Source: an uncultured virus (IMG/VR IMGVR_UViG_3300047550_002736) (Duplodnaviria; Heunggongvirae; Uroviricota; Caudoviricetes). Taken from it: 64,000 nucleotides of DNA. How positions within the stretch are numbered: position 1 is the first letter of the stretch; each line of letters begins with the position of its first letter. Shown here one piece after another: positions 8,599 through 61,304 of the stretch. The notes under the pieces are model-generated. The model was not told where the DNA came from. It saw nothing but the letters and a program-made list of their open reading frames with translations, and did not search any database. The stretch lies in the IMG/VR virus record IMGVR_UViG_3300047550_002736. One strand, 5' to 3'. The translations under genes and the position numbers were made by a program.

Positions 8599-11256
8599 AT
8601 GTATCAGAACATTTATTTCGATAAGAAAACAAACACATGTCATCTTTGGGACGATAAAAAGGGTTATACCAGTTTTGTATTTCGTCCTTATGCCTATCGC
8701 AAGCGACCCAACGGTAAATACAAGAGTATCTTTGGTGATGACTTGGAAAAGGTTTATAGTTTCAATCCCCGTGATCCATCATTGTTTGAGTCAGACGTTC
8801 CTATTGAGACACGTATTCTTATTGATGCGTATGAAGATAGTGACGATGTATCTGATGGTCATCGTGTGTTGTATCTTGATATTGAGGTCAGCACTGAAGG
8901 TGGGTTTCCAAATGTTGATGAAGCAGACAAGGAAATCACCGCTATTGCAATTTATGACAGTCTTACGTCAAAGTATACCGCTTTCATTTTGGACAGAAAT
9001 GGTTTGATGGAAGACACCGATAGTGATAATCGTGAAATTCGTTGTTTCACTGATGAAGATAGTTTGTTGACTCACTTTATTACCAAGTGGGAAGAAATTC
9101 AACCTACAATTGTGACTGGATGGAACAGTGAACAATTCGATATGCCATATCTGTATCGAAGAATGAAGAATGTAATTGGACCATCTCAAGCAAAACGAAT
9201 GAGTCCAATTGGAACTGTTTATATAAACGATTGGAGTAAAAAGTTGGTTGTTGCCGGTGTAACTCACTTGGATTACATGAAGTTGTATGAAAAGTTGAAC
9301 ATCAAGAAAGAGCCAAGTTACGCATTGGGTGCGATTGGTAAAAAGATCGTCAACATGGAAAAGATTACCTACAAGGGTAGTTTGGATGATTTGTATAAAG
9401 CCGACATCAACAAATATGTCGAGTATAACTTGAATGACGTGCAGATCATTGTGGCACTGGAGAAGAAACTACAGTTTATTGAGTTAGCTAGAGCTATTTG
9501 TCATAAAGGTCATGTGCCTTATGATTGTTATCAAATGAGTTCACGATTCATTGAGGGTGCGATTCTTATGTATCTTCGCCGTAAGGGTCAAGTTGCCAAG
9601 AACAAACCTTTGGAAGGTCGTGAGGAGTATGAACAGAGACTTGATGAAAATGAAGAAGGATTTGAAGGTGCGTATGTTAAGGCTCCTAAGCCTGGTCGTT
9701 ATGAGTGGGTATTTGATTTGGACCTTACATCAATGTATCCGAATATCATCATCAGTCTTAACATATCACCTGAGACCAAGATAGCTGTGATTGAACGTAT
9801 TGAATATGATGATCAATATGTTGCAGATCGCAGAGCTGAGTTGACTGAAGATTATAACAATCTGAGTGATTCAACACAAAAAGAAACTCCGTTGGAAGAA
9901 TATATTCAACAGAAGTTGTATATCTATAATGCGAAGATGTTTACACAAAACAGAGTGTCTTCGTATCATATTGGTGGTAATGTATATTCACAAGAACAAT
10001 TCAAAAAGTTAATATCCGAATCCAATTTGAGTGTTGCAAGTAACGGTGTATTGTATAACAAAGATATACCAGGTGTTATTCCCGAGATTCTTGTGAAGTG
10101 GTTCGATGAACGTAAAGAAATGCGTAAGTTGGCAAAGGATTATCATAAGAAAGGTGATGAGGGAATGTATGAGTTTTATGAACAACGTCAGAAGGTGCAA
10201 AAGGTTCTTCTCAATTCCATTTATGGTGTATTGGGTCTACCGATTTTTAGATTCTATGACAAGGATAATGCGAGCGCTGTCACTATAACTGGTCAAGATA
10301 TCATCAAGACGACGGGTAAAGCGATCAATGAATATTTCAAGAAGACATTGAATGAAACTGATGGTGATTGGGTGATTTATACAGATACGGACTCTTGTTT
10401 CGCAAGTGCGCTTCCAATCATTCAGAAAAACATGCCTGATATTGATACGAACGATGAAAAGGCGATGACTGAGGCTATTCTCAAAGTCACTGGTGAGGTT
10501 CAATCATTCGTGAATAAGTTTTATGATATGATGTCTCTTCGATTCTTCAATATTGAAAAACATCGGTTTGACGCAAAACAAGAAGTTATTGCCAAGACGG
10601 GATTTTGGTTGGCAAAGAAACGTTATGCCCAGTTCATCATCAACAATGGTGGGTTGGTTGTTAATGAAATGGAAGTGAAAGGTATTGACGTAGTTAGAAC
10701 GTCATTTCCAATTCAGTTCAGAAAGTTCATGCAACAGTTTTTGAATGATATTCTTCGCAAGACTGATAAACAAGTGATTGATCAAAATATCTTGACGTTT
10801 CTTGATAAAAATTTGGTTGATTCTCCAGTTATTGAAATTGCCAAGAACACTAGTGTAAAATTCAAGAGTGGTGGTGAATCAAAGACTGACTATAATCCTA
10901 AGACTCGTAGTAAGTTCAAGTATATCAAAGGAACAACTGCACAGGCAAAGGCAGCTTTGTTTTACAATGACTTATTGCAACATTGGGGTCTTGACAAGAT
11001 GGTTCCTCCAATCTTTCATGGACAAAAGATTAAGTGGGTATATCTCAAATCAAATGAATATGGATCAGAGTGTATTGCATTGAAAGCGGATGGAACAGAT
11101 CCAGACCAAATCATCGACTTCATTAACAAATATGTGGATAGAACCGCCATGTATGAACAAGAGTTGAAGGGTAAACTCATGGATTTTTATAATATTTTGA
11201 ATTGGGATTATCCTAATCAAACCGACAAAACTTTGGGTGAATTCTTTAGTTTCTGA
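8599..11256 (+). CDS. family B DNA polymerase (gp43-like)
   Basis: Exo motifs YLDIE, TGWNSEQFD, YNLND; polymerase motifs DLTSMYP, KVLLNSIYG, YTDTDS, KKRY. Confidence 0.97.
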   Translation: MYQNIYFDKKTNTCHLWDDKKGYTSFVFRPYAYRKRPNGKYKSIFGDDLEKVYSFNPRDPSLFESDVPIETRILIDAYEDSDDVSDGHRVLYLDIEVSTEGGFPNVDEADKEITAIAIYDSLTSKYTAFILDRNGLMEDTDSDNREIRCFTDEDSLLTHFITKWEEIQPTIVTGWNSEQFDMPYLYRRMKNVIGPSQAKRMSPIGTVYINDWSKKLVVAGVTHLDYMKLYEKLNIKKEPSYALGAIGKKIVNMEKITYKGSLDDLYKADINKYVEYNLNDVQIIVALEKKLQFIELARAICHKGHVPYDCYQMSSRFIEGAILMYLRRKGQVAKNKPLEGREEYEQRLDENEEGFEGAYVKAPKPGRYEWVFDLDLTSMYPNIIISLNISPETKIAVIERIEYDDQYVADRRAELTEDYNNLSDSTQKETPLEEYIQQKLYIYNAKMFTQNRVSSYHIGGNVYSQEQFKKLISESNLSVASNGVLYNKDIPGVIPEILVKWFDERKEMRKLAKDYHKKGDEGMYEFYEQRQKVQKVLLNSIYGVLGLPIFRFYDKDNASAVTITGQDIIKTTGKAINEYFKKTLNETDGDWVIYTDTDSCFASALPIIQKNMPDIDTNDEKAMTEAILKVTGEVQSFVNKFYDMMSLRFFNIEKHRFDAKQEVIAKTGFWLAKKRYAQFIINNGGLVVNEMEVKGIDVVRTSFPIQFRKFMQQFLNDILRKTDKQVIDQNILTFLDKNLVDSPVIEIAKNTSVKFKSGGESKTDYNPKTRSKFKYIKGTTAQAKAALFYNDLLQHWGLDKMVPPIFHGQKIKWVYLKSNEYGSECIALKADGTDPDQIIDFINKYVDRTAMYEQELKGKLMDFYNILNWDYPNQTDKTLGEFFSF

Positions 11257-11281: not shown

Positions 11282-12484
11282 ATGACAAAATCAAACATAG
11301 AAAGTCTTATCTATAAAAATAGGTCCGAAGTTAAAGATGGTAATTTTGTTACCTACATTGTAAAAAGTAAAACGACATTGCATGAAGCTGCTAAAGCAAT
11401 TGCAATTGGCCAAAGCATTGGCAATCCCAATAAACGGTCTGAGTTTGAAACAGACAAACTAATAGAAAAATTTTGTTGTAAAATCATATCTGTAGAAGAA
11501 ACAAATAAAAGTGAGGGTAAGGTAGTAATATTTTACCCGGACACTAATTTTAATTATAAAGAGGATGGTATCTCACATTTTCTTACTACATTGATGGGCG
11601 GACAACTTGATATTGATATAATTGAAAAATGTAGATTGGAAGACATTGAATTTTCACTACATTTCAGATCATTCTTTTCTGGTCCAAATTTAGGATTGAA
11701 TGAAATACGTAAGTTAACTAATACTTACAATAAACCATTGTTTGGTGGAATTATCAAACCAAAGATTGGATTGAATGCGGAAGATTACTTTGAGGTGTTT
11801 AAAATTTATGCAGACAATGGTTGTAACTTTATTAAAGAAGATGAAATATTGTCTAACCAGTCATTTTGTTCAATTAGAAAAAGACTAGAACGTGTAGCAA
11901 ATTATATACGCACAAACAATATTAAGTTGGTATATTGTCCATCCATTACATGCGACCATAAATACTTAGAAAGTCGTGTGGAGAAAATAGAAAAGATGGG
12001 TATCAATGGTGTCCACATCAATATTCATAGTGGATATGGTGCTTATAAGTTGGTAAAAGATTCATTCAGAAATATGTATCTTCACTATCAAAAGAGTGGA
12101 GATAGACTTTGGACAAATCCACAACATAATTTTTCTATAAATGAAACGGTATTATTTGAAATTGCTAGTAGATGTGGATGTTCTACGCTTCATGTAGGTA
12201 TGATTGGTGGATATCTCAACAGCGATTCCGAAAGTTTGAAACGATCAATCAAAAAACTAGTAGAGTTGAATTCAGTATCAGCTTTGAGTTGTGGCCTACA
12301 TCCTGGTTTGATTGATTATATAACCAATGAACTTGGTCATGTTGACTGGATGGGAAATGTTGGAGGATCTATTTCATCACATCCTATGGGAGCCAAGGCT
12401 GGGGTTAAAGCTATGGTTCAGGCAATAAATAAGGTGTATGGCGAGGAATATAACAAAGCTATAGAAGTGTGGGGCAAAAAATGA
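11282..12484 (+). CDS. RuBisCO-like protein (form IV, RLP)
   Basis: GP.LG...IR, PLFGGIIKPKIGL, FIKEDE, LHVG, SCGLHPG, VGGSISSHPMG..AG..A; several carboxylase residues are substituted. Confidence 0.9.
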   Translation: MTKSNIESLIYKNRSEVKDGNFVTYIVKSKTTLHEAAKAIAIGQSIGNPNKRSEFETDKLIEKFCCKIISVEETNKSEGKVVIFYPDTNFNYKEDGISHFLTTLMGGQLDIDIIEKCRLEDIEFSLHFRSFFSGPNLGLNEIRKLTNTYNKPLFGGIIKPKIGLNAEDYFEVFKIYADNGCNFIKEDEILSNQSFCSIRKRLERVANYIRTNNIKLVYCPSITCDHKYLESRVEKIEKMGINGVHINIHSGYGAYKLVKDSFRNMYLHYQKSGDRLWTNPQHNFSINETVLFEIASRCGCSTLHVGMIGGYLNSDSESLKRSIKKLVELNSVSALSCGLHPGLIDYITNELGHVDWMGNVGGSISSHPMGAKAGVKAMVQAINKVYGEEYNKAIEVWGKK

Positions 12485-13218
12485 ATCATTTAAACATTGT
12501 TATTCCAGCAGCTGGGTTGGGTAAAAGATTCAATACAAACAAACCCAAGCCTCTGTTGGATGTCAATGGAAAACCTATGCTTGCAAGAGTGTTGGAAAAC
12601 TTTAATCAACATTTAAATGTATCATTTACAGTTTGTATCTTAAAAGAACATGAGTCCAAATACAATATTATAGATACCATCTACGAATATATTAAAGAAC
12701 AAGACATAGATGTTACATATTTTATTGTTAACGAACTACAAGCTGGACCGGCAAAAACATGTTATCTTACAAAAGAAGTGTTAGATGAAGAAGAACAGTT
12801 AATTATAGTCAATTGTGACCAGATAATTTTTGATCTTGATTTGTCTAAATTTATTAATTTTGCAAATAAAAATGGTGTTGATGGTGTGGTCGGCACATTT
12901 TATTCAAACAGTCCTAAAAATAGTTATATCAAATTAGACGACGAAGGAAATATAACTCAAATTAAGGAAAAGATAGTATTAAGCAATTATGCAACGAATG
13001 GTTTACACTATTGGTCTAAAGCAAAACATTTTTACAATTCGTGTGATAAAATGTTTGCCAATAATGACACAGTAAACAATGAATTTTACATCGCACCTAG
13101 TTACAATTATATGATTGATGATGGAATGAAAGTAATTCAATATTTCTTCAATGAACATTATCCAATAGGTATACCACAAGATTTAGAGAAATTTAAAAAG
13201 TTATATGCAAATTTTTGA
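12481..13218 (+). CDS. sugar nucleotidyltransferase (NTP_transferase family)
   Basis: IVIPAAGLGKRF, PKPLLDVNGKPM, NCDQ, IKEK, NNEFYIAP, IGIPQDL. Confidence 0.88.
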   Translation: MNHLNIVIPAAGLGKRFNTNKPKPLLDVNGKPMLARVLENFNQHLNVSFTVCILKEHESKYNIIDTIYEYIKEQDIDVTYFIVNELQAGPAKTCYLTKEVLDEEEQLIIVNCDQIIFDLDLSKFINFANKNGVDGVVGTFYSNSPKNSYIKLDDEGNITQIKEKIVLSNYATNGLHYWSKAKHFYNSCDKMFANNDTVNNEFYIAPSYNYMIDDGMKVIQYFFNEHYPIGIPQDLEKFKKLYANF

Positions 13219-13531
13219 TTCTACCCCATACATGAAACAAGGAGGTTGGTTTGTTGGAAACTTTGAACCAACAGTATTTAAGACTGACCAATTTGAAGTG
13301 AGTTATAAACTTCATTACAAAGGTGAAGAATGGCCAAAACATCATCATAAGTTAAGCACCGAGATTAATTTTTTGATTCGTGGCAAAATGTTAATCAATG
13401 ACGTTTTGATTGATGCTGGTAAAATATTTGTTGTTGATAAAAATGAATCGGTCAAACCAATATTTCTTGAAGACTGTGAATTTATAGTGATCAAAACACC
13501 ATCAGTAGCAAATGACAAATATAACGATTGA
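13205..13531 (+). CDS. cupin-domain protein
   Basis: GGWFVGNF, HHHKLSTEINFLIRG, VIKTPS. Confidence 0.75.
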   Translation: MQIFDSTPYMKQGGWFVGNFEPTVFKTDQFEVSYKLHYKGEEWPKHHHKLSTEINFLIRGKMLINDVLIDAGKIFVVDKNESVKPIFLEDCEFIVIKTPSVANDKYND

Positions 13532-13534
13532 AAT

Positions 13535-14173
13535 ATGAAAGAGTGTTATAAAGATCAAATAGTCAAATACAAAACTGATATATTTGGATTACTACAAATT
13601 CCAAGTTTTGTCAACCCGGATTTAAATAATTACGATGATATGGGATATGCTTATGAAGAAATTAGACCATATCTAGAAATAACTGATTGTAATTTGAGTT
13701 CTTTGGAGACAATTTTAGATAAAATTTTAGTAAAAAATATAGTAGAGATTGGTGTGGCACGTAATGGAAATAGGTCATTTACTCATACATTAATAAAACG
13801 AAAAACTAAAGATGGAATTTATTGTGGAATCGATTTAGACGATAAATCTTTTCTAAACGATAACGAAAACAAAGTATATACAATCAGATCCAACTCTCAT
13901 GATCAAGATATTATTCGAAATTATCTTAAAGAAATTGGTATGAACAAAATAGATGTATTGTTCATAGATGGATGGCACTCAATCAATACTGTTATTAATG
14001 ACTGGAAGTATTCAGATTTGTTATCAGACAAAGGTGTTGTAATATTTCACGATACCAATTATCATCCAGGACCAAATATATTTTTGGATTTCATTGACAG
14101 AAACATTTACACCGTGATAGAGTATTGCACTAATCTAGACGACTATGGATTAGCAGCTGCTTTCAAAAAGTAA
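13535..14173 (+). CDS. class I SAM-dependent methyltransferase
   Basis: IVEIGV, IDVLFIDGWHS, GVVIFHD. Confidence 0.85.
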   Translation: MKECYKDQIVKYKTDIFGLLQIPSFVNPDLNNYDDMGYAYEEIRPYLEITDCNLSSLETILDKILVKNIVEIGVARNGNRSFTHTLIKRKTKDGIYCGIDLDDKSFLNDNENKVYTIRSNSHDQDIIRNYLKEIGMNKIDVLFIDGWHSINTVINDWKYSDLLSDKGVVIFHDTNYHPGPNIFLDFIDRNIYTVIEYCTNLDDYGLAAAFKK

Positions 14174-14186: not shown

Positions 14187-14600
14187 ATGAAAAAATACGA
14201 AGACCTGTTACAGTTACCAATAGACGGTGCTAAAATAAAGATATATACCTCTGTAGATGATGAAATTGCTACTCAATATCAACGTGTAGTAATTGGTCAA
14301 CGTGGACCATATGTGGAATTTACTAGTAGTCAAATATATTGTGATAAACTATACATTCCTAAGAGTCAATTGTATAGATTAAGTGATCCAAAAGTATATT
14401 ATATAGAATTTAGAACAAACAACACAAACGTCAAGGTATATTATCAGATGCGTAGTGTTGCGTATGCAGATTATAAAATTGGTAACTTCTACATATCCCC
14501 CGAACATTTGTTTTATCTCAAAGATAATCAATTAGAGAAATGTATCAAGAATAAAGAAAATATTTCGGTGATTCCAGAAGAATTTTTTGAAACAGTTTGA
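14187..14600 (+). CDS. hypothetical protein
   Basis: 137 aa ORF; YQRVVIGQRGPYVEF...VAYADYK. Confidence 0.6.
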   Translation: MKKYEDLLQLPIDGAKIKIYTSVDDEIATQYQRVVIGQRGPYVEFTSSQIYCDKLYIPKSQLYRLSDPKVYYIEFRTNNTNVKVYYQMRSVAYADYKIGNFYISPEHLFYLKDNQLEKCIKNKENISVIPEEFFETV

Positions 14601-14634: not shown

Positions 14635-15372
14635 ATGAAGAAAAATACACTAAACACATTTATAGACAAGTATTCACTCAACGGAACCATTGAATCTGTT
14701 AAGTGGGTAGTTAACTCAAAGGAAAAGACCATCAAGACATCCGCAATCAGTGATGATAAGAATGTTTTGGCATTTGTAACCATCAAGGATAACGATGGTC
14801 TTGAAGACTTGGAAATTGGTGTTAATGACACTGCCAAGTTGAAGAAGATGTTGACGGTTCTTGGTGATGATGTAACCATCTCTCCAGTCAAGACCAACGA
14901 CAAGGTAACGTCACTTATGATCAACAGTGTCGATACCGACATTCAGTATGTTACCGCAGATCTAAGTGTTATTCCTAAGACTGCTGAACTCAAGAAGTTG
15001 CCTCCATTCAATTTGGAGATTCCGTTGACCAAGGAGTTTGTTTCTACATTTGTTAAGGCAAAAGGTGCATTGAGTGATATTGATATTTTTACACTTAACG
15101 CCGATAAGAAGGGTAAGATCAAGATGACTTTGGGGTATAGTAATACCAACAGTAATAGAATCAATATTGATATCAAAGCATCTGAGGGTAAGGATAAGAT
15201 TAGTAAGACCCTTCATTTCAGTGCTAAGTATCTAAAGGAGATCTTGACTTCAAACACTGATTGTGATAATGCTGTATTGAAGATCAGTGACGCAGGTATT
15301 GCGAACGTTGAGTTCAACAATGATTTGTTCAACAGCAATTATTTTCTGATCGAATTCAAGAATATTGACTAA
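14635..15372 (+). CDS. DNA polymerase sliding clamp (gp45/PCNA-like)
   Basis: 245 aa, beta-rich, FSAKYLKEIL motif, directly upstream of the clamp loader. Confidence 0.7.
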   Translation: MKKNTLNTFIDKYSLNGTIESVKWVVNSKEKTIKTSAISDDKNVLAFVTIKDNDGLEDLEIGVNDTAKLKKMLTVLGDDVTISPVKTNDKVTSLMINSVDTDIQYVTADLSVIPKTAELKKLPPFNLEIPLTKEFVSTFVKAKGALSDIDIFTLNADKKGKIKMTLGYSNTNSNRINIDIKASEGKDKISKTLHFSAKYLKEILTSNTDCDNAVLKISDAGIANVEFNNDLFNSNYFLIEFKNID

Positions 15373-15380: not shown

Positions 15381-16340
15381 ATGAGTTTCTTTACTGAAAC
15401 AGAACAACCTCAAGTTTCTGATCATGGCGTTTGGGCTGAAAAGTATCGTCCAGACACATTGGAAGATTATATCTGTGATGAACGTGTCAGATCCATCATC
15501 TCAGACTTTATTACCAAGAAAGATGTGCCTGGACATTTGTTGTTTCATGGTAATGCAGGAACTGGTAAGACTACACTTGCGAAGATTATCACCAAGAATA
15601 TTCCATGTGATGTAATGTATGTCAACGCATCAGATAATACTGGTGTTGATTTTGTTCGTGATAAGATCAAGCCATTTGCTTCAACGATGGGTTTCAATGA
15701 TCTTAAGATTGTAATTCTTGATGAGTCTGATTATATGTCTACAAACTCACAGGCATCACTTCGTAATCTGATGGAGACCTACAGTAAGACAACCAGATTT
15801 ATTCTTACTTGTAACTACATTGATAAGATTATTGAACCGTTGTTCAGTAGAACTCAAGTGTTCAAGTTGGAACCTCCTACGATGAAGGATGTAGCAATGT
15901 ATATTGTTAAGATCCTTACAAAGGAGAATATTACATATGATATGCCAACTGTTGCGACTGTGGTTAAAGAGTATTATCCAGATATTCGTAAAATCGTCAA
16001 TGTTGTTCAACAGAGTTCAACCAGTGGTAACTTGGAACTGGTCAAACTTCAGACCGCAAACGCGGATGTTAAGAACAAATTGGTTTCAATTCTAAAGACC
16101 GTCAAGACCAACAAGAAGGCATTTACTGAGATTAGACAGTTGGTAAATGATGCAGGAATCAAACACTTTGATGAGTTGTATTCTGAGTTGTATAATAAAT
16201 CGCCAGAATATGACAATGGACATAGTATTAGTGTGATTGTAGACATATCTGAAAGTTTGTATCAAAATGCGTTAGTGATTGACAAAGAAATTACTTTCAT
16301 GGCATGTATAGCAAAGATCATAAAGGGAATATCTAAGTAA
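15381..16340 (+). CDS. clamp loader ATPase (gp44/RFC small subunit-like)
   Basis: WAEKYRP, GNAGTGKTT, NASD, ILDESD, RFILTCNY. Confidence 0.93.
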   Translation: MSFFTETEQPQVSDHGVWAEKYRPDTLEDYICDERVRSIISDFITKKDVPGHLLFHGNAGTGKTTLAKIITKNIPCDVMYVNASDNTGVDFVRDKIKPFASTMGFNDLKIVILDESDYMSTNSQASLRNLMETYSKTTRFILTCNYIDKIIEPLFSRTQVFKLEPPTMKDVAMYIVKILTKENITYDMPTVATVVKEYYPDIRKIVNVVQQSSTSGNLELVKLQTANADVKNKLVSILKTVKTNKKAFTEIRQLVNDAGIKHFDELYSELYNKSPEYDNGHSISVIVDISESLYQNALVIDKEITFMACIAKIIKGISK

Positions 16341-16384: not shown

Positions 16385-19033
16385 ATGGATTCTAAGAAAA
16401 AAGTTATTTATTTTGGAGCAGATGGTGTGAGTGGATATGCGAATGCGATAAAAGGATATATTTATGATTTAATAAAAAATGATAATGAAGTATATTTTTA
16501 CCCTTTAACTATACCTTATAAAAATGATGGAACTGAATATTACAACTTTTATAAAAATAATGTAAAAAAGTTACCGTTATTTAATCGTATTAAAAAGTTA
16601 GAAGGTGCTGAAGTAGTTATACACTCATCTCCCGATACATGGAATAGATTGATTGAAGAAAATAAAGATCTATTATTTGATAAAAAAATAATAGGTAGAA
16701 CTGTGTGGGATTTTGATCCTTTGCCAGAAGATTGGGTCAATCATATAAATAAAAGTATTGTCAACATTGTGAGTGTGCCATCTACATGGTGCAGAGAAAT
16801 TTTTATTAATTCTGGTGTCAAAAAAGACATAATTGTTGAACCACACACAATTCCAGATATTTCATATAAAAAATATCAATTAGTTGATTTAATTAATCAT
16901 GCGAAGGTGTATAGTTCAGTTCCAATAAATTTTGAGAGAATTATTGACCGTGTAAAGTTTTTGAATGTTTCTTCATTAGCATTGAGAAAAAATATTAATT
17001 TCATAGTTGAGTCTTATTTGGATACATTTAGTTATGAAGATGAAACTGTTTTAATATTAAAATTAACTGATCTTAAAGAGAATTTAAAACAATCTGACGA
17101 TAATATCAAAAAAATTATTGTCAATAAAATAAAAAATAAAAATAAAAATTTTGCATATGCTCCTATTATAATAATTGATGATTTCATGACATTTGATCAA
17201 ATGCAAAGTTTATATGATAATGTCGATATATACATCAACGCTTCTAATGGTGAAGGATTTAATTTGCCATGTTTTAATTCCAAAATAAAAAATAAATATA
17301 TAGTTACTCCTTTACATGGTGGACTCACAGATTATTTGCATGATTACAAAAATTTATATGAAGTTAATTATAACACGATAAATATATCAAGTAGAGATAA
17401 GTCTTCACGAAATCAATCATTATGGATAAGTTTGAATACAAAAGGAATATCTCCATCTTATGATGATTTTGTAAATCAACTTAAAGAATCGTATTATGTT
17501 AATATTAACAAATCAATTTATTTTGAAAGTATTGAATTATACAAACCATATACCACAGACACAGAAAATTCATCACTGTTTCCAATATGGTTAAAAGATG
17601 GATGGCATAAAGAAAATATAATTAATGGAGTATGGAGCAAAAAAGAAGCTGAAATTGTTGTAGGTGACAGTGTATTAAAATTCGAAGCAGTATTAGAAAT
17701 TACAAAAAACACATCGTTTAGATTGAATGTAGATGGTATAGAAAAAACTTACGATTTAAAACGTGGTCAGTATTCATTTAAAATCATTTCAAAAGATAAA
17801 AAACATATTAAGTTTTATATAGAAACTACATCTAATGGAACTAATATAGGCCATGAACAAAACAAAGAATATGGAATTAAATTGGTAGATATTTATGTTA
17901 ACGGTATAAAAAACAATACCAGTAGATTGCAATTACGTGAAGAAAATTTCGATGAATCTATATTCAAAAATGCACTAAAAGTTATTAATAAATCTGTTAT
18001 AGTTGATAAAGGACAATATGGAGATATTATTATTAAATTTAAAAATATTGTTGACTCAAACAAATTTAATAAAAAAATTAGTTTAGAAAAACAACTTTCT
18101 TTCTATTCACATAGATCTGGATGGAATTACGTTTTACATGGGTTAAGTGCATTAAATTCAAACAACGGAGTATATTGCGATGGGTTTATTGAAAATAACT
18201 TTGCGATGAGAAAACATGAATGTGTTTTAAAAAATACAATACCATACAGTAAGTCCTGGATTGGTTTCATACACAACCCTCCAAATATGCCGCCATGGTT
18301 TTCTGATATAAATGTATTTAATAATTTAATATTTAAAGATCCATATTTTATAGAAAGTTTGAGAAAATGTAAAGGAATATATACATTGTCAGAATATCAT
18401 GCTAAAATTGTGAGAAAATATATTCCGCATGTGCCAGTTGAAAGTTTATTTCATCCCACTGAAATACCAGAGTTACAATTTGATTTTGATGAATTTGTAA
18501 AAAATGAAGATAAAAAATTAGTAACTATTGGATGGTGGTTACGAAAACTAAATGCTTTATATACAGTAAAAACAAACGATTACAAAAAAATAAGATTGTT
18601 ATCCAACAACAACTCTAAAGATAAGATCTTTGAGTTAGAGAAAATCGAGGAAATCACCAGTAATCAACATATTACAGATGAACAAAGAAAGTCTGTAAAA
18701 ACATTAGACTTTTTATCAAATGATGAATATGATAAAATTTTGTCAGAAAATTTAGTATATTTAGATTTGTATGATTGTAGTGCTAATAACGTAATAATTG
18801 AGTGTATTGCACGTGGAACACCATTATTTATAAATAGACTACCAGCAGTTGTTGAATATTTAGGAGAATCATATCCATTATATATTGACAGTATATATGA
18901 TCTGGAAGACAAGTTAAAAGATTATGATCTTATTCGCAGAGCACATTTATATTTAAAAACAATACGCTACAAAGTGGAGATTGGTCATTTCTTAGAAACA
19001 ATGGTAAATTCAAACATATACAAAAATTTGTAA
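16385..19033 (+). CDS. multidomain glycosyltransferase (GT4 domain, accessory beta domain, C-terminal GT-B-like domain)
   Basis: SGYA, RKNI, GEGFNLP; C-terminal HRSGW, GWWLRK, SANNVIIECIARGTP. Confidence 0.75.
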   Translation: MDSKKKVIYFGADGVSGYANAIKGYIYDLIKNDNEVYFYPLTIPYKNDGTEYYNFYKNNVKKLPLFNRIKKLEGAEVVIHSSPDTWNRLIEENKDLLFDKKIIGRTVWDFDPLPEDWVNHINKSIVNIVSVPSTWCREIFINSGVKKDIIVEPHTIPDISYKKYQLVDLINHAKVYSSVPINFERIIDRVKFLNVSSLALRKNINFIVESYLDTFSYEDETVLILKLTDLKENLKQSDDNIKKIIVNKIKNKNKNFAYAPIIIIDDFMTFDQMQSLYDNVDIYINASNGEGFNLPCFNSKIKNKYIVTPLHGGLTDYLHDYKNLYEVNYNTINISSRDKSSRNQSLWISLNTKGISPSYDDFVNQLKESYYVNINKSIYFESIELYKPYTTDTENSSLFPIWLKDGWHKENIINGVWSKKEAEIVVGDSVLKFEAVLEITKNTSFRLNVDGIEKTYDLKRGQYSFKIISKDKKHIKFYIETTSNGTNIGHEQNKEYGIKLVDIYVNGIKNNTSRLQLREENFDESIFKNALKVINKSVIVDKGQYGDIIIKFKNIVDSNKFNKKISLEKQLSFYSHRSGWNYVLHGLSALNSNNGVYCDGFIENNFAMRKHECVLKNTIPYSKSWIGFIHNPPNMPPWFSDINVFNNLIFKDPYFIESLRKCKGIYTLSEYHAKIVRKYIPHVPVESLFHPTEIPELQFDFDEFVKNEDKKLVTIGWWLRKLNALYTVKTNDYKKIRLLSNNNSKDKIFELEKIEEITSNQHITDEQRKSVKTLDFLSNDEYDKILSENLVYLDLYDCSANNVIIECIARGTPLFINRLPAVVEYLGESYPLYIDSIYDLEDKLKDYDLIRRAHLYLKTIRYKVEIGHFLETMVNSNIYKNL

Positions 19034-19040: not shown

Positions 19041-20408
19041 ATGATTAAATTGATCATTTTTGATTTGGATGGTGTATTGGTAGAGACTAAAAAACTTCAT
19101 TATGATGCTTTAAATAAAGCATTACGTGATGCTGATTCAAAATATGAAATTTCATATCAAGAACATCTTTCTAAGTATGATGGATTAAGCACATATAAAA
19201 AATTGGAAATTCTTGGTAGAGAAAAAGGACTGAGTGGGATGGAGTTTGAAAGTATATGGATGCGTAAACAACTTTATACTTCTCAGATGTTAAGAGAGTT
19301 GCAACCCGATGTTAGACTAATAGAAGTTCTTAAGAAACTCAAACAAAAGTGTCAAATTGCGGTAGCTAGTAACAGTATTCGTGATAGTGTTAAGATCACA
19401 CTTTTGAAATTGGGACTTTTAGAATATATTGATTTTTATCTGTCAAATGAAGATGTTAAACATTCAAAACCACATCCTGAAATTTATTTGAAATCGATGA
19501 TTCAATCTGGTGTTACACCAAAAGAAACTCTTATTGTTGAGGACAGTGTTATTGGACGTAATGCTGCAAATAATAGCGGTGCTTATTTACTTGGTGTGAA
19601 TAATCCACACGATATTACGTATGAAAATATTATAGAACATATAGATTGTATCAATAAAAATATCAAAAGACCCAAATGGCAAGGGGGGAAAATGAACGTA
19701 ATTATTCCAATGGCCGGAGCGGGAAGTCGATTTGAAAAAGCTGGATATACTTTTCCTAAACCACTGATTGACGTTCGTGGTAAGCCAATGATTCAATGGG
19801 TTGTTGATAATTTGAATGTGGATGCCAAGTATATTTTTATTGTTCAAAAAGGTCATTATGAACAGTATAATCTCAAAGACACAATAAATAATTTTTGTCC
19901 AAACAACAAAATTATTCAGATAGAGGGAGTGACCGAAGGAGCTGCTATCACCACATTATTAGCAAAGGAATATATTAATAACAATGATCCTCTTATAATT
20001 GCTAATAGTGATCAGTTTGTAGAATGGGATAGTGACGACTTTATGTATCATTGTGGTGCAAGTGATTTGGATGCTAATATTCTTACATTTAAATCAACAC
20101 ATCCAAAATGGAGTTTTGCGAAGTTAAATGAATTTGGATATGTTACTGAGGTTGCTGAAAAGAAGCCAATCAGTGATGTTGCCACTGTGGGAGTTTATTA
20201 TTGGCGTCGTGGCTCTGATTATGTCAAGTATGCTGAACAGATGATCAATAAGAACATCAGAGTCAACAACGAGTTTTATGTGTGCCCTGTATTTAATGAG
20301 GCCATTCAAGATGGAAAGAAAGTTAGAACCTACAACATTGAAAAAATGTGGGGGTTGGGAACACCTGAAGATTTAGAATATTTTCTTAAAAATTACAAAC
20401 ATGAATAA
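19041..20408 (+). CDS. HAD phosphatase-nucleotidyltransferase fusion
   Basis: FDLDGVL, SKPHPEIY, IVEDS; then IPMAGAGSRF, PKPLI, NSDQ, NNEFYVCP, LGTPEDL. Confidence 0.92.
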   Translation: MIKLIIFDLDGVLVETKKLHYDALNKALRDADSKYEISYQEHLSKYDGLSTYKKLEILGREKGLSGMEFESIWMRKQLYTSQMLRELQPDVRLIEVLKKLKQKCQIAVASNSIRDSVKITLLKLGLLEYIDFYLSNEDVKHSKPHPEIYLKSMIQSGVTPKETLIVEDSVIGRNAANNSGAYLLGVNNPHDITYENIIEHIDCINKNIKRPKWQGGKMNVIIPMAGAGSRFEKAGYTFPKPLIDVRGKPMIQWVVDNLNVDAKYIFIVQKGHYEQYNLKDTINNFCPNNKIIQIEGVTEGAAITTLLAKEYINNNDPLIIANSDQFVEWDSDDFMYHCGASDLDANILTFKSTHPKWSFAKLNEFGYVTEVAEKKPISDVATVGVYYWRRGSDYVKYAEQMINKNIRVNNEFYVCPVFNEAIQDGKKVRTYNIEKMWGLGTPEDLEYFLKNYKHE

Positions 20409-21225
20409 ATCTTGTTTTTTAGCACCAATTCATGACGCTAAGTTTAGATACGGTTATGATTTTGTTAAAAGTTATAATGATATATTTGATGATGATAATA
20501 TCTTCTTGGTATTTTCCAGTGAAAAAGAACATGAAGATTTTAATAAACAGTATGATGTAAAGTATAAATCGATCATATACACCGATTCATATGATCCAGA
20601 ATTAAAAGGCATAATTACAACAAAAAAGTGGTTCGGGCTAAATCACATATACAGTAATACAGATTATGTGAATATAGCAGTGATGGATGTTGATTCTTTG
20701 TTTGTAAAAAAGGTTGACTACAATACAATGTTTGATCAATTTGTCAATCAACAAAAAATACATGCAAACTTCATTCATGATAATCCACACATAAAAAGTC
20801 TACAAAGTCAAATAGTGACAAACTGTGTAAAGTTTTTCAAATCAGAAGATCAAAAGTTATTGGAAATATTGACACACAATTTTAAGACATTGTTTTGGTT
20901 TAATGACATACCCATATACCACAAATCTTATTACCAAGAATTTCTACATTATATTGATTATGAAAAAATCAAACATGAAATATGTTGGTTAGATTTTGAT
21001 TATATTGTGTATGCTTATTATTTGATGGTCACAAATAGACTGACCATGAAACTCCTTGATCTCGACATGGCTTTAGAACACAATCTACTGGACGATTATT
21101 CAAAAATACCCAAAGACAAGTTTATAAAGGCATTTACTGGTTATAATCCTATGTGGATTAAGACTGAAATAGAAGAACAATACATGAAGAACGTATTCAT
21201 GAAAGTTCACGTTGATCGAAAATAG
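20401..21225 (+). CDS. hypothetical protein, possible GT-A fold
   Basis: AVMDVDS DxD motif; island context. Confidence 0.45.
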   Translation: MNKSCFLAPIHDAKFRYGYDFVKSYNDIFDDDNIFLVFSSEKEHEDFNKQYDVKYKSIIYTDSYDPELKGIITTKKWFGLNHIYSNTDYVNIAVMDVDSLFVKKVDYNTMFDQFVNQQKIHANFIHDNPHIKSLQSQIVTNCVKFFKSEDQKLLEILTHNFKTLFWFNDIPIYHKSYYQEFLHYIDYEKIKHEICWLDFDYIVYAYYLMVTNRLTMKLLDLDMALEHNLLDDYSKIPKDKFIKAFTGYNPMWIKTEIEEQYMKNVFMKVHVDRK

Positions 21226-22031
21226 TCTTTCCAAAACTTATATACTTCTACCACAGACTTTTCATTTACATTATTGTTTTCAATTATATATTTCCATGAT
21301 TTATAACACTCAACGTCTGTAGGAATACCTAGACACGCGTATTTGTTTGCTACGTAGTGAGTTATTTTTAGACCGTCGTTAATCATTAAATTGTATGGCA
21401 CAGTAACATAATATTCACCATTTACACAAACCTTTTCATCCATCAATCGTTTGAAGTATTTTTTGAGTAAAGCACCTGATTTAAAATAATAAATACCATT
21501 TGATGCGGGCTCGTTTGGTTTTACTTGATCAATTGGCTTCTTTTCGTGAACATAAGAAACTGTGTTATCTTGTTCATTGACCGTCAAAAATGCAAATGAT
21601 TTGTTGTATAATTTATGAGGAACAAATCCGACATGTGTTACCAAACATCCATCTGAATTTGATTCTCTACAAAATTTTATAAATTCTTCAAAGTTCCACT
21701 TTTGTGTAAAGTCACAGTATGAGACTACAATTTCTTCATCATCGGGTATACTATCAAACGCATTTGAAATGGAATATACTGGTCCAAGATTATTTTTGTC
21801 TATTGCAAAAATCTTAGATACTTTGGATTGAAGTATTGCTCTATCAATTCCATGTGTAGACAAATCTTCACGTCTTACAATAAACAAAAAATCTTTGTCG
21901 TCTACATTTGGAAACATGTCTAAAACATAGTCTATGATTCGTTTATCCTCAATCTTTATTAGAGACTTGATTGGATATCCCTTAGACGTGAATCTTTCAC
22001 TATTTCCTGATAGAGTTATAACAATTTTCAT
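21207..22031 (-). CDS. sugar nucleotidyltransferase paralog
   Basis: ATG 22031; ITLSGNSERF...YPIKSLI, SYCD, HEKK, NGEYYV, LGIPTD. Confidence 0.85.
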   Translation of the reverse strand: MKIVITLSGNSERFTSKGYPIKSLIKIEDKRIIDYVLDMFPNVDDKDFLFIVRREDLSTHGIDRAILQSKVSKIFAIDKNNLGPVYSISNAFDSIPDDEEIVVSYCDFTQKWNFEEFIKFCRESNSDGCLVTHVGFVPHKLYNKSFAFLTVNEQDNTVSYVHEKKPIDQVKPNEPASNGIYYFKSGALLKKYFKRLMDEKVCVNGEYYVTVPYNLMINDGLKITHYVANKYACLGIPTDVECYKSWKYIIENNNVNEKSVVEVYKFWKDYFRST

Positions 22032-22470
22032 AAAATTTAATGTTGTCGCTGACAATACCATCAAATTCAAGTATTTCATTGATGGTATAGTGCGACATCT
22101 CTGGCATTATAAGTATGCCTTTTCTTAGTGTAGTAACAGTATGTGGATGAATTAATATAACATTTTTGCTTGATAATGTGAATGGATCATCAGCATGAGT
22201 AAAAAGTTCCAATATAGGAATGGTGTTTAATCTAAATAATGCTTCATCGTTTTTACAATGAATTAATAATTGTTGATAATTGTTTTTAAAAAATTGATCT
22301 GAAATTTCCCATTCAGGCTCATCGTGACCCAAGAAAAATTTATTGTTTTTATACCAGACATCAATTTCAACACCATAACCAATGGATATAACATTTTGAA
22401 TGGTGGACGGACAATTTTCATAAATCTTGTGTCTACCGACTGTATTTCCTCTGTGACTAATAAACTTCAT
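22000..22470 (-). CDS. GDPD/PLC-like phosphodiesterase-family protein
   Basis: ISHRGN, EN, VEIDVW, LGHD, IHCKN, GIVSD. Confidence 0.75.
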   Translation of the reverse strand: MKFISHRGNTVGRHKIYENCPSTIQNVISIGYGVEIDVWYKNNKFFLGHDEPEWEISDQFFKNNYQQLLIHCKNDEALFRLNTIPILELFTHADDPFTLSSKNVILIHPHTVTTLRKGILIMPEMSHYTINEILEFDGIVSDNIKFYENCYNSIRK

Positions 22471-43780: not shown

Positions 43781-45151
43781 ATGATACCTTTAGTAAATCT
43801 ACCAGCACCATTCTTGACCGATGAAAAAGCACTTATGCCTCTTGGTCTGTTGTATCTCGGTGCTTCAATTGAACACGCGGGTAGAGACTGTAAGATACTG
43901 GATCTTGCGGGTGATAAAGATTATATAACAAAAGCACTGGATCAGTTGTCTGAATTGAATACCGACGTTGTTGGTATTGGTCTTACAAGTAGTCAAGTTC
44001 CATTGGGTCGCAGATTAGTTCATGCAATCAAAAAAGAATATCCCAAGATACGAATTATTGGCGGAGGACCACACGTGACCCACGCATTTCAAGCATCAAG
44101 AAGACAATCAGTTAGATGTGAAAAACTTATACGTGACTTGAACGATACATACGATGTGTTGGTCATGGGTGATGCTGAAAAAGCAATACTTAAAGCAGCT
44201 GAACCAGACAGTCCAAAGTTGATTGATGCTACTCATAAACTATCGCCATATTATGTTGAAGATGACTATTTGGACACCATTCCATTTCCCGCACGACATT
44301 TGATCGATGTAGACAGTTATTCATATAATTTGGGTATGGTTACGATCAAAGAGAATAATGCAATCAACATCATGTCTCAACGTGGATGTCCATATTCATG
44401 TAGATTCTGTGCTAGTCGTATGGACAAATATGGAAGAACTCTACGTAGAACCTCCAACTTCAAGATCGTAGAAGAAATCAAACATCTACACAAAACATAT
44501 GGTTATACTTATTTTACTTTTTATGACGACGAACTAAACGTTGATCCAAACTTAAATACATTGTTGGATCAACTCAAAGACGTTCAAATGGAGTTGGGTG
44601 TAGCCTTTAAATTCAGAGCATTTGTAAAAGCAAACTTATGCACAAGAGAACAAATGAAAGCAATGGCTGATACTGGATTCAAAGTGATTGCTACTGGTGC
44701 TGAATCTGGTTCTGAACGAATATTGAAGAACATGAATAAAAAGGCAACCAAAGAAATTAACACCAAGGTTGTTGAATGGGTGCATGAGTTTGGTATGTAT
44801 TCTAAGTCAATCATGTCTTTGGGTCATCCCGGTGAAACACCAGAAACATTGGCAGAAACAGAGGCATGGTTGGATCAAGTAAAATTGAGCGACGTAAACT
44901 TTACAATAATTGAATGTTTGCCATCATCAGTATATTTTGATAATGCAATTCAGAACGACAAAGGAGTGTGGGTGTATACAGTTCCAGAGAACGGTGACAA
45001 GTTGTATGACATAGGTATTGATTGGACTGAAGAAGTTCATTTTCACAATGCTGCCCCAGGTCAACACTACAATCCTACAGTTTATACTGATGCTTTGTCT
45101 CAAGATGATTTGATGAAATGGCACACATATTTTAGTAAAAAATTCAAGTGA
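43781..45151 (+). CDS. B12-binding radical SAM protein
   Basis: PLGLLYLG, IGGGPH, PFPARH, RGCPYSCRFC, FYDDELN, GAESGS, GHPGET. Confidence 0.9.
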   Translation: MIPLVNLPAPFLTDEKALMPLGLLYLGASIEHAGRDCKILDLAGDKDYITKALDQLSELNTDVVGIGLTSSQVPLGRRLVHAIKKEYPKIRIIGGGPHVTHAFQASRRQSVRCEKLIRDLNDTYDVLVMGDAEKAILKAAEPDSPKLIDATHKLSPYYVEDDYLDTIPFPARHLIDVDSYSYNLGMVTIKENNAINIMSQRGCPYSCRFCASRMDKYGRTLRRTSNFKIVEEIKHLHKTYGYTYFTFYDDELNVDPNLNTLLDQLKDVQMELGVAFKFRAFVKANLCTREQMKAMADTGFKVIATGAESGSERILKNMNKKATKEINTKVVEWVHEFGMYSKSIMSLGHPGETPETLAETEAWLDQVKLSDVNFTIIECLPSSVYFDNAIQNDKGVWVYTVPENGDKLYDIGIDWTEEVHFHNAAPGQHYNPTVYTDALSQDDLMKWHTYFSKKFK

Positions 45152-46578
45152 AAATAACATTAATAATTCCTCCATCACCATTTTTGTTGGATGAAAAGGT
45201 TTTTATGTCATTGGGCATCCTTAAGGTTGCTGCCGCTTTGGAACCATATCATGATGTAAATGTCATGGACTTGTCGGGAGACCGAGGATATCTACACACA
45301 ATAAAACAATATCTAGGCACCAATCAAGTTGATCTGGTGGGTATTACCGCTACGACACCTCAATTGCCAAATGTAGTGTTGATCAATCAGATAATAAAAG
45401 AATTTAACATACCTGTGATTCTTGGTGGTCCACATGTTACACTGATAAATTCTGCTTACAAAAAAGAACAGTCAAAGAACTTTGTTGGTCGTGCTACAAA
45501 AGCAATGAACAACATAATGAAAGAGTTTAACCGAGTAGTTTGTGGTGACGGTGAATTGGCTGTGTTCAAAGCTATAGAAGGTGAAAAATACGTTGATGCA
45601 GATAATGTGACTTCGGATTTGTTTTTGACCGATAAAAAGTTTGATGAACTTCCATTACCAGCTCGACATCTCATCGACGTTAATAGTTACAAGTTTACCA
45701 TCAACGGAAAAAGGGGATTGAGTTTGATAGGTCAACTTGGTTGTCCTTTTAACTGTGGATTTTGTAGTGGACGAAACAGTCCCACATTCAGAAAGATTAG
45801 AAACAGAACCGTAGACAATATCATCAACGAAATCGATCAACTATATAAAACATATGATGTCCGAGCATTTATGTTTTATGATGATGAATTGAACGTTGGA
45901 ACGTCTGTGTATGAGTTGTTGAAGAAATTAATTGAGTATCAACAACAAAACAACGTGGAGTTTTTGTTTAGAGGATGTGTCAAAGCTGAATTGTTCAATG
46001 AAGTTCAAGCAGAATTGATGTCTAAAGCTGGATTTAAAAAGTTGTTGGTAGGATTTGAATCTGGTTCCGATAGAATTCTTAAAAATATTAATAAGAAAGC
46101 TACCAAAGCCGAAAATACAAGGTGTGTAGAGTTGGCCAGAAAATACAATATTGGAGTAAAAGCATTGATGAGTATTGGTCACCCAGGCGAAAGTGAACAA
46201 ACAATAAAAGAAACCTACGACTGGTTGTTATCAGTTAAACCCGATGAGTTTGACGTAACAATAATTACTGTTATACCTGGTAGCAAATACTACGATGATT
46301 CGATATTAACCGATAATAACATATGGAAATATACTATTAATAATGATAATTTATATTCGGTTGAGGTTGATAACTTTAAAGAGTATGAATATTACAAAGG
46401 GGTGCCTGGACAATATAACTCCTTCGTATATACAGATTATTTAAGTAGAGAACAATTGGTTTATTATAGAGATTGGTTAGAAACTACTGTATTGACTGAC
46501 TTAAAGATAAAGAAAGAATTGAATACAAACAGTTTATTATATGAACATAGTATGGGTCAATCTCCAAACTTCTTCTGA
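45148..46578 (+). CDS. B12-binding radical SAM protein, tandem paralog
   Basis: SLGILKVAA, LGGPH, GDGE, GCPFNCGFC, FYDDELN, GFESGS, GHPGES. Confidence 0.9.
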   Translation: MKITLIIPPSPFLLDEKVFMSLGILKVAAALEPYHDVNVMDLSGDRGYLHTIKQYLGTNQVDLVGITATTPQLPNVVLINQIIKEFNIPVILGGPHVTLINSAYKKEQSKNFVGRATKAMNNIMKEFNRVVCGDGELAVFKAIEGEKYVDADNVTSDLFLTDKKFDELPLPARHLIDVNSYKFTINGKRGLSLIGQLGCPFNCGFCSGRNSPTFRKIRNRTVDNIINEIDQLYKTYDVRAFMFYDDELNVGTSVYELLKKLIEYQQQNNVEFLFRGCVKAELFNEVQAELMSKAGFKKLLVGFESGSDRILKNINKKATKAENTRCVELARKYNIGVKALMSIGHPGESEQTIKETYDWLLSVKPDEFDVTIITVIPGSKYYDDSILTDNNIWKYTINNDNLYSVEVDNFKEYEYYKGVPGQYNSFVYTDYLSREQLVYYRDWLETTVLTDLKIKKELNTNSLLYEHSMGQSPNFF

Positions 46579-52610: not shown

Positions 52611-52627
52611 ATAACCTATAAGTATAA

Positions 52628-59129: not shown

Positions 59130-59138
59130 AACTTCTCC

Positions 59139-59166
59139 ATAATACTCTACTTTTTATAAATGTCAA
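59139..59166 (-). promoter_or_regulatory. sigma70-like promoter
   Basis: TTGACA-16nt-TATTAT, 9 nt before ATG 59129. Confidence 0.55.
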
Positions 59167-60618: not shown

Positions 60619-60624
60619 ATGTTT

Positions 60625-61233: not shown

Positions 61234-61255
61234 AGTCGTGTGAGAGACTATAACT

Positions 61256-61304
61256 ATGACGTATTCGTGACTGTTCTAAGACTTTATAGTGACAATCCTG
61301 TTAC
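61256..61304 (-). promoter_or_regulatory. pho-box-like array (five half-sites, 11-bp period)
   Basis: Minus strand GTAAC-6-GTCAC-6-GTCTT-6-GTCAC-6-GTCAT directly upstream of the porin-pit operon. Confidence 0.7.

Follow-up and report, generated by a model that had tools for sequence, protein, structure and literature searches.

A RuBisCO-like protein of an uncultured phage as the probable input enzyme of a nucleotide-activation cassette

What is a protein of the RuBisCO family doing among the replication genes of a large phage? The question is raised by an uncultured virus of the Caudoviricetes (IMG/VR record IMGVR_UViG_3300047550_002736), of which a stretch of 64,000 nucleotides, referred to here as the window, was analysed. 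At positions 11282-14173 it contains a head-to-tail block of four genes, all on the plus strand, that encode a RuBisCO-like protein (RLP), a nucleotidyltransferase (NTase), a 108-aa cupin and an S-adenosylmethionine (SAM)-dependent methyltransferase:

11282..12484, plus strand: RLP with RuBisCO_large and N-terminal domains, best PDB match 8dht (2e-30)
12481..13218, plus strand: NTase (phrog_3980) with a sugar- or alcohol-phosphate NTP-transferase fold
13205..13531, plus strand: small single-domain cupin of the metal type, 108 aa, recognised from its motif, an AlphaFold2 (AF2) model and its orthologs
13535..14173, plus strand: class I SAM-dependent methyltransferase (Methyltransf_24), an accessory part

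A preliminary description of this DNA had proposed that the RLP works anabolically, making an unusual ketose or branched sugar that is then activated with a nucleotide and methylated for use in a glycan. We conclude that the RLP is probably, at about 60 %, a catalytically intact, non-carboxylating input enzyme of a nucleotide-activation cassette whose parts are the RLP, the NTase, the cupin, the methyltransferase and a phosphodiester enzyme of the GDPD-like or LicD type, this figure applying to the role and the list of parts jointly.

The RLP belongs to the RuBisCO superfamily, as both RuBisCO_large (PF00016; 7.4e-31, 107.9 bits against a cut-off of 30.1) and RuBisCO_large_N (PF02788; 3.5e-7, 30.9 bits against 20.7) score above their gathering thresholds, and 99 RuBisCO or RLP sequences in the PDB match it at E<=0.01, the best being a form III enzyme, 8dht. 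Active site residues were mapped by HMMER alignment to 8dht and in a multiple sequence alignment of 125 sequences. Retained are K175, K177, K201, D203, E204, H327, S379, G381, G403 and G404, the Mg/carbamate core corresponding to K164, K166, K190, D192 and E193 in the numbering of the 405-aa open reading frame (ORF). The substitutions are E60 to G or Q, N123 to G, D202 to E, H294 to Q, R295 to K, H298 to D, K334 to Y and G380 to C. Both alignments uphold the residue calls of the preliminary description (KPK, KEDE, H327 and the phosphate loops kept; E60, N123, H294 and K334 lost), and its view that this is a non-carboxylating RLP stands, the residues for carboxylation having been replaced. The resulting signature, GQG-KKKEDE-HQKD-HY-SCG-GG, covers 20 positions and is nearly unchanged in all 34 of the clade members compared; the Mg/carbamate and C1-phosphate residues are conserved in 34/34 and the carboxylation residues are uniformly replaced. 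We argue that this uniformity indicates a conserved, working active site that is unable to carboxylate. Hence, because E60, N123, H294, R295, H298 and K334 are all replaced, the RLP is predicted not to be a carboxylase. It falls below every NCBIfam cut-off, reaching 152 bits against 497 for type III RuBisCO, 131 against 409 (NF007095) and 99 against 514 (TIGR03332) for MtnW, and 91.4 against 700 for OiaX (NF042437).

A phylogeny was built with FastTree (LG+gamma) on an alignment of 122 sequences with 404 columns, with representatives shorter than 340 aa excluded and three truncated sequences dropped; reference RLPs were labelled by their NCBIfam scores, among the matches listed. The 34 RLPs are monophyletic with a Shimodaira-Hasegawa-like support of 1.0 and lie apart from the MtnW clade (0.989), the OiaX-like proteins and forms II/III, in agreement with the earlier expectation that they would not cluster with MtnW. 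The clade roots outside the other RLPs, and the node joining it to a sister group is poorly supported (0.44). An N-terminal loop, GQSxGNPxxRSEFE, is invariant or nearly so within it. A tblastn search with the RLP against 50,697 cultured-phage records gave no match and the RLP has no PHROG family; hence, it appears so far to be confined to uncultured phages.

The preliminary description had also offered the locus as an undescribed system, and this was an overstatement, as the phage RLP clade is already in print. Jaffe et al. 2019 (PMC6389311) reported a 'form IV-like' clade of RuBisCO-related proteins from phages and Beckwithbacteria, found on large Myoviridae-type phage contigs, which groups with sequences from the Candidate Phyla Radiation (CPR), outside the classical RLP clades, and the available text of that paper leaves the function open. 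The clade examined here fits the description of that group, the comparison being one of descriptions and not of aligned sequences: the window is T4-like, and the clade includes a homolog in a Beckwithbacteria metagenome-assembled genome (MAG; locus L032, 42 % identity) as well as members from Patescibacteria and Saccharibacteria. In its main text, so far as available, PMC6389311 makes no mention of nucleotidyltransferase, cupin or glycosyl genes. Likewise, full-text searches of the literature, with subscription journals and the supplement to Jaffe et al. outside their scope, found no paper that connects RLPs with nucleotidyltransferases or with glycan loci. The present analysis adds the association with the NTase, the fused forms, the accompanying phosphodiester enzymes and the occurrence of the pair in SAR11, Legionella and DPANN.

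Two other kinds of RuBisCO-domain fusion were seen among the sequences collected. P0201 (583 aa), an RLP of another clade, has a TIR domain at the N-terminus of a full-length RLP (TIR_2 3e-13, plus both RuBisCO domains) and looks like a defence-system architecture. P0153 (726 aa) and P0170 (742 aa) join a domain of the IF-2B family (ribose-1,5-bisphosphate isomerase-like) to a RuBisCO whose catalytic signature is complete and whose scores approach those of type III, placing two steps of the AMP pathway within one protein.

The genes that accompany the RLP bear on its function. A scan of IMG/VR yielded 18 viral loci with RLPs that are 40-72 % identical, and a pattern scan in which each prokaryotic species was represented by one genome yielded 54 loci, made up of 48 that belong to the clade and six with distant RuBisCOs (25-27 % identity) that served as controls. 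Neighbours were counted using profile hidden Markov models (HMMs) run over six-frame translations of the loci. An NTase gene lies near the RLP gene in 17 of the 18 viral loci, always within 4 kb and in 13 cases within 400 nt, and in 44 of the 48 cellular loci, always within 800 nt, but in none of the six controls. The cupin is found in 17/18 viral, 14/48 cellular and 0/6 control loci, and a mini phosphodiesterase (mini-PDE) of about 140 aa in 15/18, 25/48 and 0/6, respectively. The sole viral locus lacking the NTase, L006, breaks off 2 nt past the RLP gene. Of the four cellular ones, two are on cut contigs and one is on a short contig, which leaves L031 as a real exception. Among the controls, L075 gave a weak single-sequence match to the HAD-NTase query described below (5e-10), which was not confirmed by the NTase profile. 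The gene order varies (RLP-NTase-cupin, NTase-cupin-RLP, cupin-NTase-RLP and NTase-RLP-cupin were all seen), which points to selection on the set of genes and not to inheritance of one arrangement. Cellular carriers include many Pelagibacter/SAR11 genomes (one of them complete), Azospirillum oleiclasticum, Turneriella, Legionella maceachernii, L. nautarum, L. drozanskii and a Tatlockia MAG, members of the Verrucomicrobia, Elusimicrobia, Bacteroidota, Saccharibacteria, Beckwithbacteria and other Patescibacteria, and, among the archaea, Woese-, Pace-, Nano- and Micrarchaeota.

In some genomes the partners are physically joined. P0125, in which the RLP is 43 % identical to that of the window, has a C-terminal NTP_transferase domain and is thus a natural RLP-NTase fusion; the cluster to which it belongs at 90 % has 128 members, many of them copies of 667-671 aa from independent sources. 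The NTase and cupin are fused in L018, and P0242 is a distant, MtnW-like RLP fused to a cupin. A search for longer, fused forms of the NTase found three proteins (one tandem NTase and two HAD-NTases) and is too insensitive to serve as a census of fusions. The recurrence of RLP and NTase, with or without the cupin, in glycan loci, for which the preliminary description had suggested a test, is therefore borne out by the counts and by these fusions.

The NTase has the NTP-binding motif IPAAGLGKRF...KPKPL and passes the thresholds of PF00483 and PF12804 (NTP_transferase 1.5e-13, 51.4 bits against 21.2; NTP_transf_3 3e-10, 41 against 27), and an IspD N-terminal motif was also detected (1.9e-8). It matches PHROG 3980 (1.7e-48) and PDB entry 4evw (2e-8), and the 120 homologs listed carry generic names only. 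None of them is named after BcbE of P. multocida, which, like BcbG, is required for a fructose side chain and to which PMC13552107 assigns no protein family. The 108-aa protein gave nothing in Pfam at E<=0.01, the nearest family being Cupin_7 (0.034, 14.4 bits against a cut-off of 27), and matches phrog_24762 (4.6e-31). It is identified as a cupin because the ortholog in L008 passes the Cupin_7 cut-off (30.2 bits), because cupin motif 1 (HxHx4Ex6G) is invariant in 14/14 orthologs, as are H37, H46, H48 and E53, and because of its predicted fold: the AF2 model (predicted local distance difference test score, pLDDT, 92.8) is a beta-barrel with 237 Foldseek matches in the PDB at E<=1e-3, those listed being almost all cupins and the best characterised folds being the Thermococcus phosphomannose isomerase 7zvm (template modelling (TM) score 0.72) and KdgF. 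The methyltransferase matches Methyltransf_24 (4e-7, 31.3 bits against 26.3) and RMNT_CmcI (0.002), and a sequence search of the PDB returned only chance-level matches. Homologs of it are near the RLP in 5/18 viral loci and in L033, and so it is only a semi-conserved accessory.

The mini-PDE of the window, which is the fourth gene to recur in the cassette and, at 156 aa, has about 60 % of the length of a GDPD barrel, gave no match in Pfam even at E<=1. It has the conserved motifs HRGN, ExD and GHD, and the best PDB folds for its AF2 model (pLDDT 95.1) are all GDPDs, though weak ones (E 4e-4, TM 0.53-0.61). Phosphodiester enzymes of other types occupy its place in some cellular loci. A full-length GDPD is present in 10 DPANN and other loci, and in all four Legionellaceae loci, which have neither cupin nor mini-PDE, a LicD-family gene (6e-44) adjoins the RLP-NTase pair. 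LicD-family enzymes transfer phospho-alcohols from CDP-activated donors.

The wider neighbourhood is one of glycan synthesis. Near the cassette, phage loci encode glycosyltransferases (GT) of families GT2, GT4, GT11 and GT17, FkbM and other methyltransferases, a C-methyltransferase, GDP-mannose dehydratase and UDP-GlcNAc 2-epimerase; cellular loci encode GT9, GT17, GT61, GT2, RmlD-like reductases, a carbamoyltransferase and a CMP-sugar synthetase-like gene. DUF7796-like proteins, some of which bear the annotation 'capsular polysaccharide biosynthesis protein', are repeatedly encoded next to the cassette and next to its RLP-less versions (L001-L006, L008, L010, L011, L013, L017, L035, L044, L048, L019, L020 and L077; an example is L002:7098-7874). 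In the closest relatives of the window a DUF7796-like gene lies between polB and the RLP gene, a slot that is empty in the window. The DUF7796-like protein is possibly the transferase of the system.

Four cultured Synechococcus phages that have no RLP encode NTases of the same family (29-35 % identity), and in these loci RpiB, RibB, a HAD domain or a class II aldolase takes the place of the RLP. In SynMITS9220M01 an NTase-RpiB fusion is followed by an ortholog of the cupin, a DUF7796-like gene, a mini-PDE and a GHMP kinase; in S-SKS1 the NTase is fused to 3,4-dihydroxy-2-butanone 4-phosphate (DHBP) synthase (RibB); in S-CAM9 it is fused to a HAD domain, as in the HAD-NTase of the window; and S-SM2 has a tandem NTase near a protein of the class II aldolase family. 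The mini GDPD-like gene is present in three of the four, and DUF7796-like genes and a glycosyltransferase neighbourhood are again found. RpiB, RibB and class II aldolases of the AraD/MtnB type act on pentose or pentulose phosphates via enediolates, and the RuBisCO family uses the same chemistry. Given this shared chemistry, the four loci lead us to propose that the RLP may be one of several interchangeable input enzymes that feed a (pent)ulose phosphate to a common core for activation and transfer.

Several of these cyanophage genes have incomplete annotations. SWZG_00042 of S-SKS1 (L019:6025-7452) is annotated only as DHBP synthase and is by Pfam the fusion of NTase and RibB, which suggests that a product of the RibB type is activated with a nucleotide in a glycan locus of a cyanophage. 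Gene 192 of SynMITS9220M01 (L077:2775-3932), annotated 'phosphatase', is the NTase-RpiB fusion, and the cupin ortholog of that phage (L077:3890-4246, 1.6e-34) is largely unannotated, a coding sequence of 141 nt being recorded there.

The surroundings of the block in the window are as follows:

8599..11256, plus strand: family B DNA polymerase (PolB; Pfam DNA_pol_B 7e-33, exo domain 4e-20), the upstream border of the putative insertion
14187..14600, plus strand: p137, 137 aa, no family, last gene of the putative insertion
14635..15372, plus strand: putative sliding clamp, 245 aa, named from synteny and Mel-JY01 homology, downstream border of the putative insertion
15381..16340, plus strand: clamp-loader ATPase, gp44-like (Pfam AAA 5e-16, DNA_pol3_delta2 6e-11, Gp44_lid 2.8e-5)
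16385..19033, plus strand: 882-aa protein with a glycosyltransferase-like N-terminal part (PHROG 2170, glycosyltransferase, 1.2e-13); no match in the Pfam search
19041..20408, plus strand: beta-phosphoglucomutase-like HAD domain fused to an NTase paralog (Pfam HAD_2 2e-30; NCBIfam bPGM family and rmlA_long)
20401..21225, plus strand: 274-aa protein following the HAD-NTase, no family match; a DUF7796-like gene of S-CAM9 holds the equivalent slot (a positional analogy only)
21207..22079, minus strand: third NTase paralog, 290 aa (Pfam NTP_transferase 5e-7; phrog_3980 8e-48)
22000..22470, minus strand: mini GDPD-like phosphodiesterase, 156 aa (HMM from seven phage orthologs, 1.4e-37)

The RLP reading frame is open from TTG 11267 (405 aa), the likely start being ATG 11282, which gives a protein of 400 aa that is 100 % identical to the public sequence P0001. 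That of the NTase is open from GTG 12469, and its likely ATG at 12481 overlaps the RLP stop codon as ATGA; the NTase and cupin genes overlap by 14 nt and the methyltransferase gene begins 3 nt beyond the cupin. The G+C content of the block (0.31-0.34) is not distinct from that of its surroundings. The nearest relative of the PolB is that of Microcystis phage Mel-JY01 (44 % identity), in which a 250-aa gene alone separates polB from the clamp loader. The 245-aa ORF of the window is homologous to that 250-aa gene (9e-29) and is called a clamp on the basis of this homology and synteny only, as it has no Pfam match and no PDB sequence match at E<=1. Because the module from polB to the clamp loader is contiguous in this nearest cultured phage, the RLP, NTase, cupin, methyltransferase and p137 genes are read as a 3.3-kb insertion within it. 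The preliminary description had thus placed the four overlapping or abutting genes correctly, the ORF coordinates agreeing with its own. Its account of the system, limited to this four-gene block, missed the HAD-NTase, the third NTase and the mini GDPD-like gene, the last of which adjoins both the third NTase paralog and the HAD-NTase fusion. Homologs of the HAD-NTase also adjoin the RLP in two other loci (L003 and L013) and are in its vicinity in two more (L004 and L005).

No match to p137 was found in Pfam, NCBIfam or PHROG, the Atlas gave only unnamed viral clusters below 0.8, and no homolog was found in the 18 viral loci. PolB is inside the stretch examined in seven of these 18 loci, and the RLP cassette adjoins it only in the closest relatives. 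In one of them polB appears as two ORFs (L001:400-2780, ORFs 400-1467 and 1464-2780); this split may be genuine or may stem from a frameshift or a faulty assembly. In another viral locus (L007:11570-12823, minus strand) a phage PARP-like protein with WGR, PARP regulatory and PARP catalytic domains is encoded 2.3 kb from the RLP cassette.

The window as a whole, in which 72 ORFs were scanned with Pfam, is T4-like. Besides PolB and the gp44-like clamp loader it encodes a lysozyme-bearing protein of 751 aa, and it has genes that resemble those of homing endonucleases as well as a long glycosyltransferase island. At 58485-59476 (minus strand) an HNH endonuclease adjoins a T5orf172/GIY-YIG-like gene, and both are probably homing endonucleases. 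Three adjacent genes at 59530-61929 (minus strand), which encode a PHO4 phosphate transporter (4.6e-92), a ClpP-like protease and a DUF2490 protein, look like auxiliary genes for phosphate uptake. The glycan island includes two adjoining B12-binding radical-SAM enzymes (43781-46578, plus strand) and a NifU/IscU-like scaffold protein (52209-52631, minus strand). DNA nearly identical to the block is present in sequencing runs from several other studies, mostly labelled freshwater or lake; 12 runs from five studies, leaving out the possible source, contain at least half of the sampled words of the block, and no RNA run is listed among the runs that match it.

How might such a cassette work? We infer its substrate, product, order of steps and acceptor from sequence and gene context as follows. 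The RLP would bind a ketose monophosphate, most likely ribulose-5-phosphate or a close pentulose phosphate, via the loops that include G381, G403 and G404, and its carbamyl-Lys/Mg2+ site (K201, D203 and E204, with K175, K177 and H327) would enolise and reprotonate it to give an isomeric keto-sugar phosphate. As K334, H294, E60 and N123 are gone, no CO2 would be added in this step. The metal cupin could then carry out a further isomerisation or epimerisation, and the NTase would couple the phosphate to a nucleoside monophosphate, producing an NDP- or CDP-linked unit. Finally, the methyltransferase and the GDPD-like, LicD or DUF7796-like enzymes may tailor this unit or transfer it to a glycan of the surrounding glycosyltransferase island. 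The linkage, the fusions and the glycan context partly support the anabolic route put forward in the preliminary description; its branched-sugar product is conjectural, and the methyltransferase would act as an accessory, being present in so few of the viral loci.

A number of points weigh against the proposed role. With K295 and H327 in place, the enzyme might still bind a second phosphate, and the substrate may thus be a bisphosphate. The NTase sequence gives no clue to the nucleotide or the phosphate acceptor, its best matches being generic, and the idea of a pentulose phosphate draws on an analogy with the four RLP-less phage loci only. L031, a MAG contig of 66 kb, is well flanked and yet, alone among such members of the clade, lacks an NTase, a cupin and a phosphodiesterase over 8 kb to each side. 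The cupin is missing from 34/48 cellular loci and hence is not essential to the core pair. The position of the block among replication genes would also fit a role in DNA modification.

Cassettes that activate small phosphorylated units for glycans are already known. Systems of the LicC/LicD, TarI/TarJ and AbpA/AbpB types supply CDP-activated phospho-alcohol or pentulose/pentitol units, and the present cassette would resemble them in that a primary phosphate ester is activated by an NTase of the IspD/LicC type and then passed to a glycan by an enzyme of the LicD family, LicD being the neighbour of the RLP-NTase pair in Legionellaceae. We know of no RuBisCO-family enzyme in any of these pathways. 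Among RLPs, those of the OiaX/OiaC type, reportedly described by Carter et al. in 2018, are said to take part in D-apiose catabolism, acting on keto-sugar-acid phosphates by enediolate chemistry. They too use the RuBisCO fold for sugar chemistry unrelated to CO2 fixation; however, OiaX is catabolic, and OiaX-like representatives form another clade and retain H294, R295 and K334.

Other explanations of the locus have to be weighed against the role of input enzyme. The order of the steps may be reversed, with the NTase activating a common sugar phosphate and the RLP, perhaps with the cupin, then isomerising or epimerising a nucleotide-linked keto-sugar whose nucleotide phosphate occupies the retained site. 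Cupins such as RmlC and FdtA do act on NDP-keto-sugars, most of the divergent loci have the order NTase-cupin-RLP, and a conserved Arg in the near-invariant GQSxGNPxxRSEFE loop could bind an extra phosphate. However, the gene order is not constant between loci, the NTases of the RLP-less phages are fused to enzymes of free sugar phosphates (RpiB, RibB and HAD), and to our knowledge no RuBisCO-family enzyme has a nucleotide-linked substrate; we therefore think this order unlikely. An activated product destined for hypermodification of phage DNA (glycosylated modified bases) and not for a surface or capsid glycan would explain the position of the block between polB and the clamp, where it interrupts a module that is unbroken in Mel-JY01, and other phage cassettes lie near RecA, DnaB and ThyX; T4-like phages are known to glycosylate their DNA. 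Against this, the RLP-NTase pair is found among surface-glycan genes in Pelagibacter, Legionella (with LicD), DPANN and CPR, no hydroxymethylase or base-modifying enzyme was detected among the 72 scanned ORFs of the window, and the adjacency to polB does not extend beyond the closest relatives, so that this destination is quite improbable.

Partnerships of an RLP with a cupin occur in both known salvage routes, as MtnW with MtnD and as the R. rubrum RLP with a cupin methylsulfurylase, and the RLP and cupin might form such a pair, for methionine or 5'-deoxyadenosine, that recycles by-products of the phage SAM enzymes. The window encodes several SAM methyltransferases as well as the two B12-radical-SAM enzymes, and P0242 demonstrates that an MtnW-like RLP can be fused to a cupin. 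The RLP also resembles MtnW/YkrW, the 2,3-diketo-5-methylthiopentyl-1-phosphate (DK-MTP-1-P) enolase, in its fold, in the enolisation core of K175, K201, D203 and E204, in having a single phosphate site and in the loss of carboxylation residues. However, it lies outside the MtnW clade and far below the MtnW cut-off, and it retains K177, a position taken by V, C or G in the MtnW references. Polar residues (K295, D298 and H327) form its distal pocket, where that of MtnW is hydrophobic (P, S and L at these positions in the references). The invariant partner is the NTase and not the cupin, and glycan genes take the place of mtn genes: no genes of the MtnA, MtnB, MtnK, MtnX or MtnD type were found among the scanned ORFs of the window or in the scanned phage and cellular loci. 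We give salvage little credence. A genuine CO2-fixing RuBisCO, either of the form III-like type in AMP nucleotide salvage or as an auxiliary gene for carbon fixation, would account for best PDB and NCBIfam matches to forms III and II/III and for the retained KPK, K201, D203 and E204, but with six carboxylation residues replaced, a type III score less than a third of the cut-off, neither AMP phosphorylase nor ribose-1,5-bisphosphate isomerase nearby and IF-2B fusions only on true form III enzymes, it can practically be dismissed.

Every RLP characterised to date works, as far as we know, in salvage or catabolism. Beyond the role of the RLP as an input enzyme, we raise as a tentative possibility, and one that is more doubtful than that role, that the clade represents an unrecognised anabolic branch of the RuBisCO family. 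Here the RLP would catalyse the committed step that converts a pentose-phosphate intermediate into a new keto-sugar phosphate, which would be activated with a nucleotide and installed on surface glycans, probably through a LicD or GDPD-like phosphodiester step, in SAR11, Legionellaceae, CPR and DPANN; large phages would use the pathway to remodel the glycans of the host or the virion. If true, a glycan-building role would widen the known functions of the RuBisCO fold, the most studied of all enzyme folds. The cassette also provides a functional lead for a phage RLP clade whose function has been open since 2019, in a system that is directly testable, consisting of three or four small soluble enzymes with few candidate substrates and with fusions that fix which proteins work together. 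As the cassette is carried by numerous SAR11 genomes, isolates of Legionella, lineages of DPANN and CPR and dozens of large aquatic phages, the sugar unit that it would make may be common on the microbial surfaces that govern phage adsorption and grazing.

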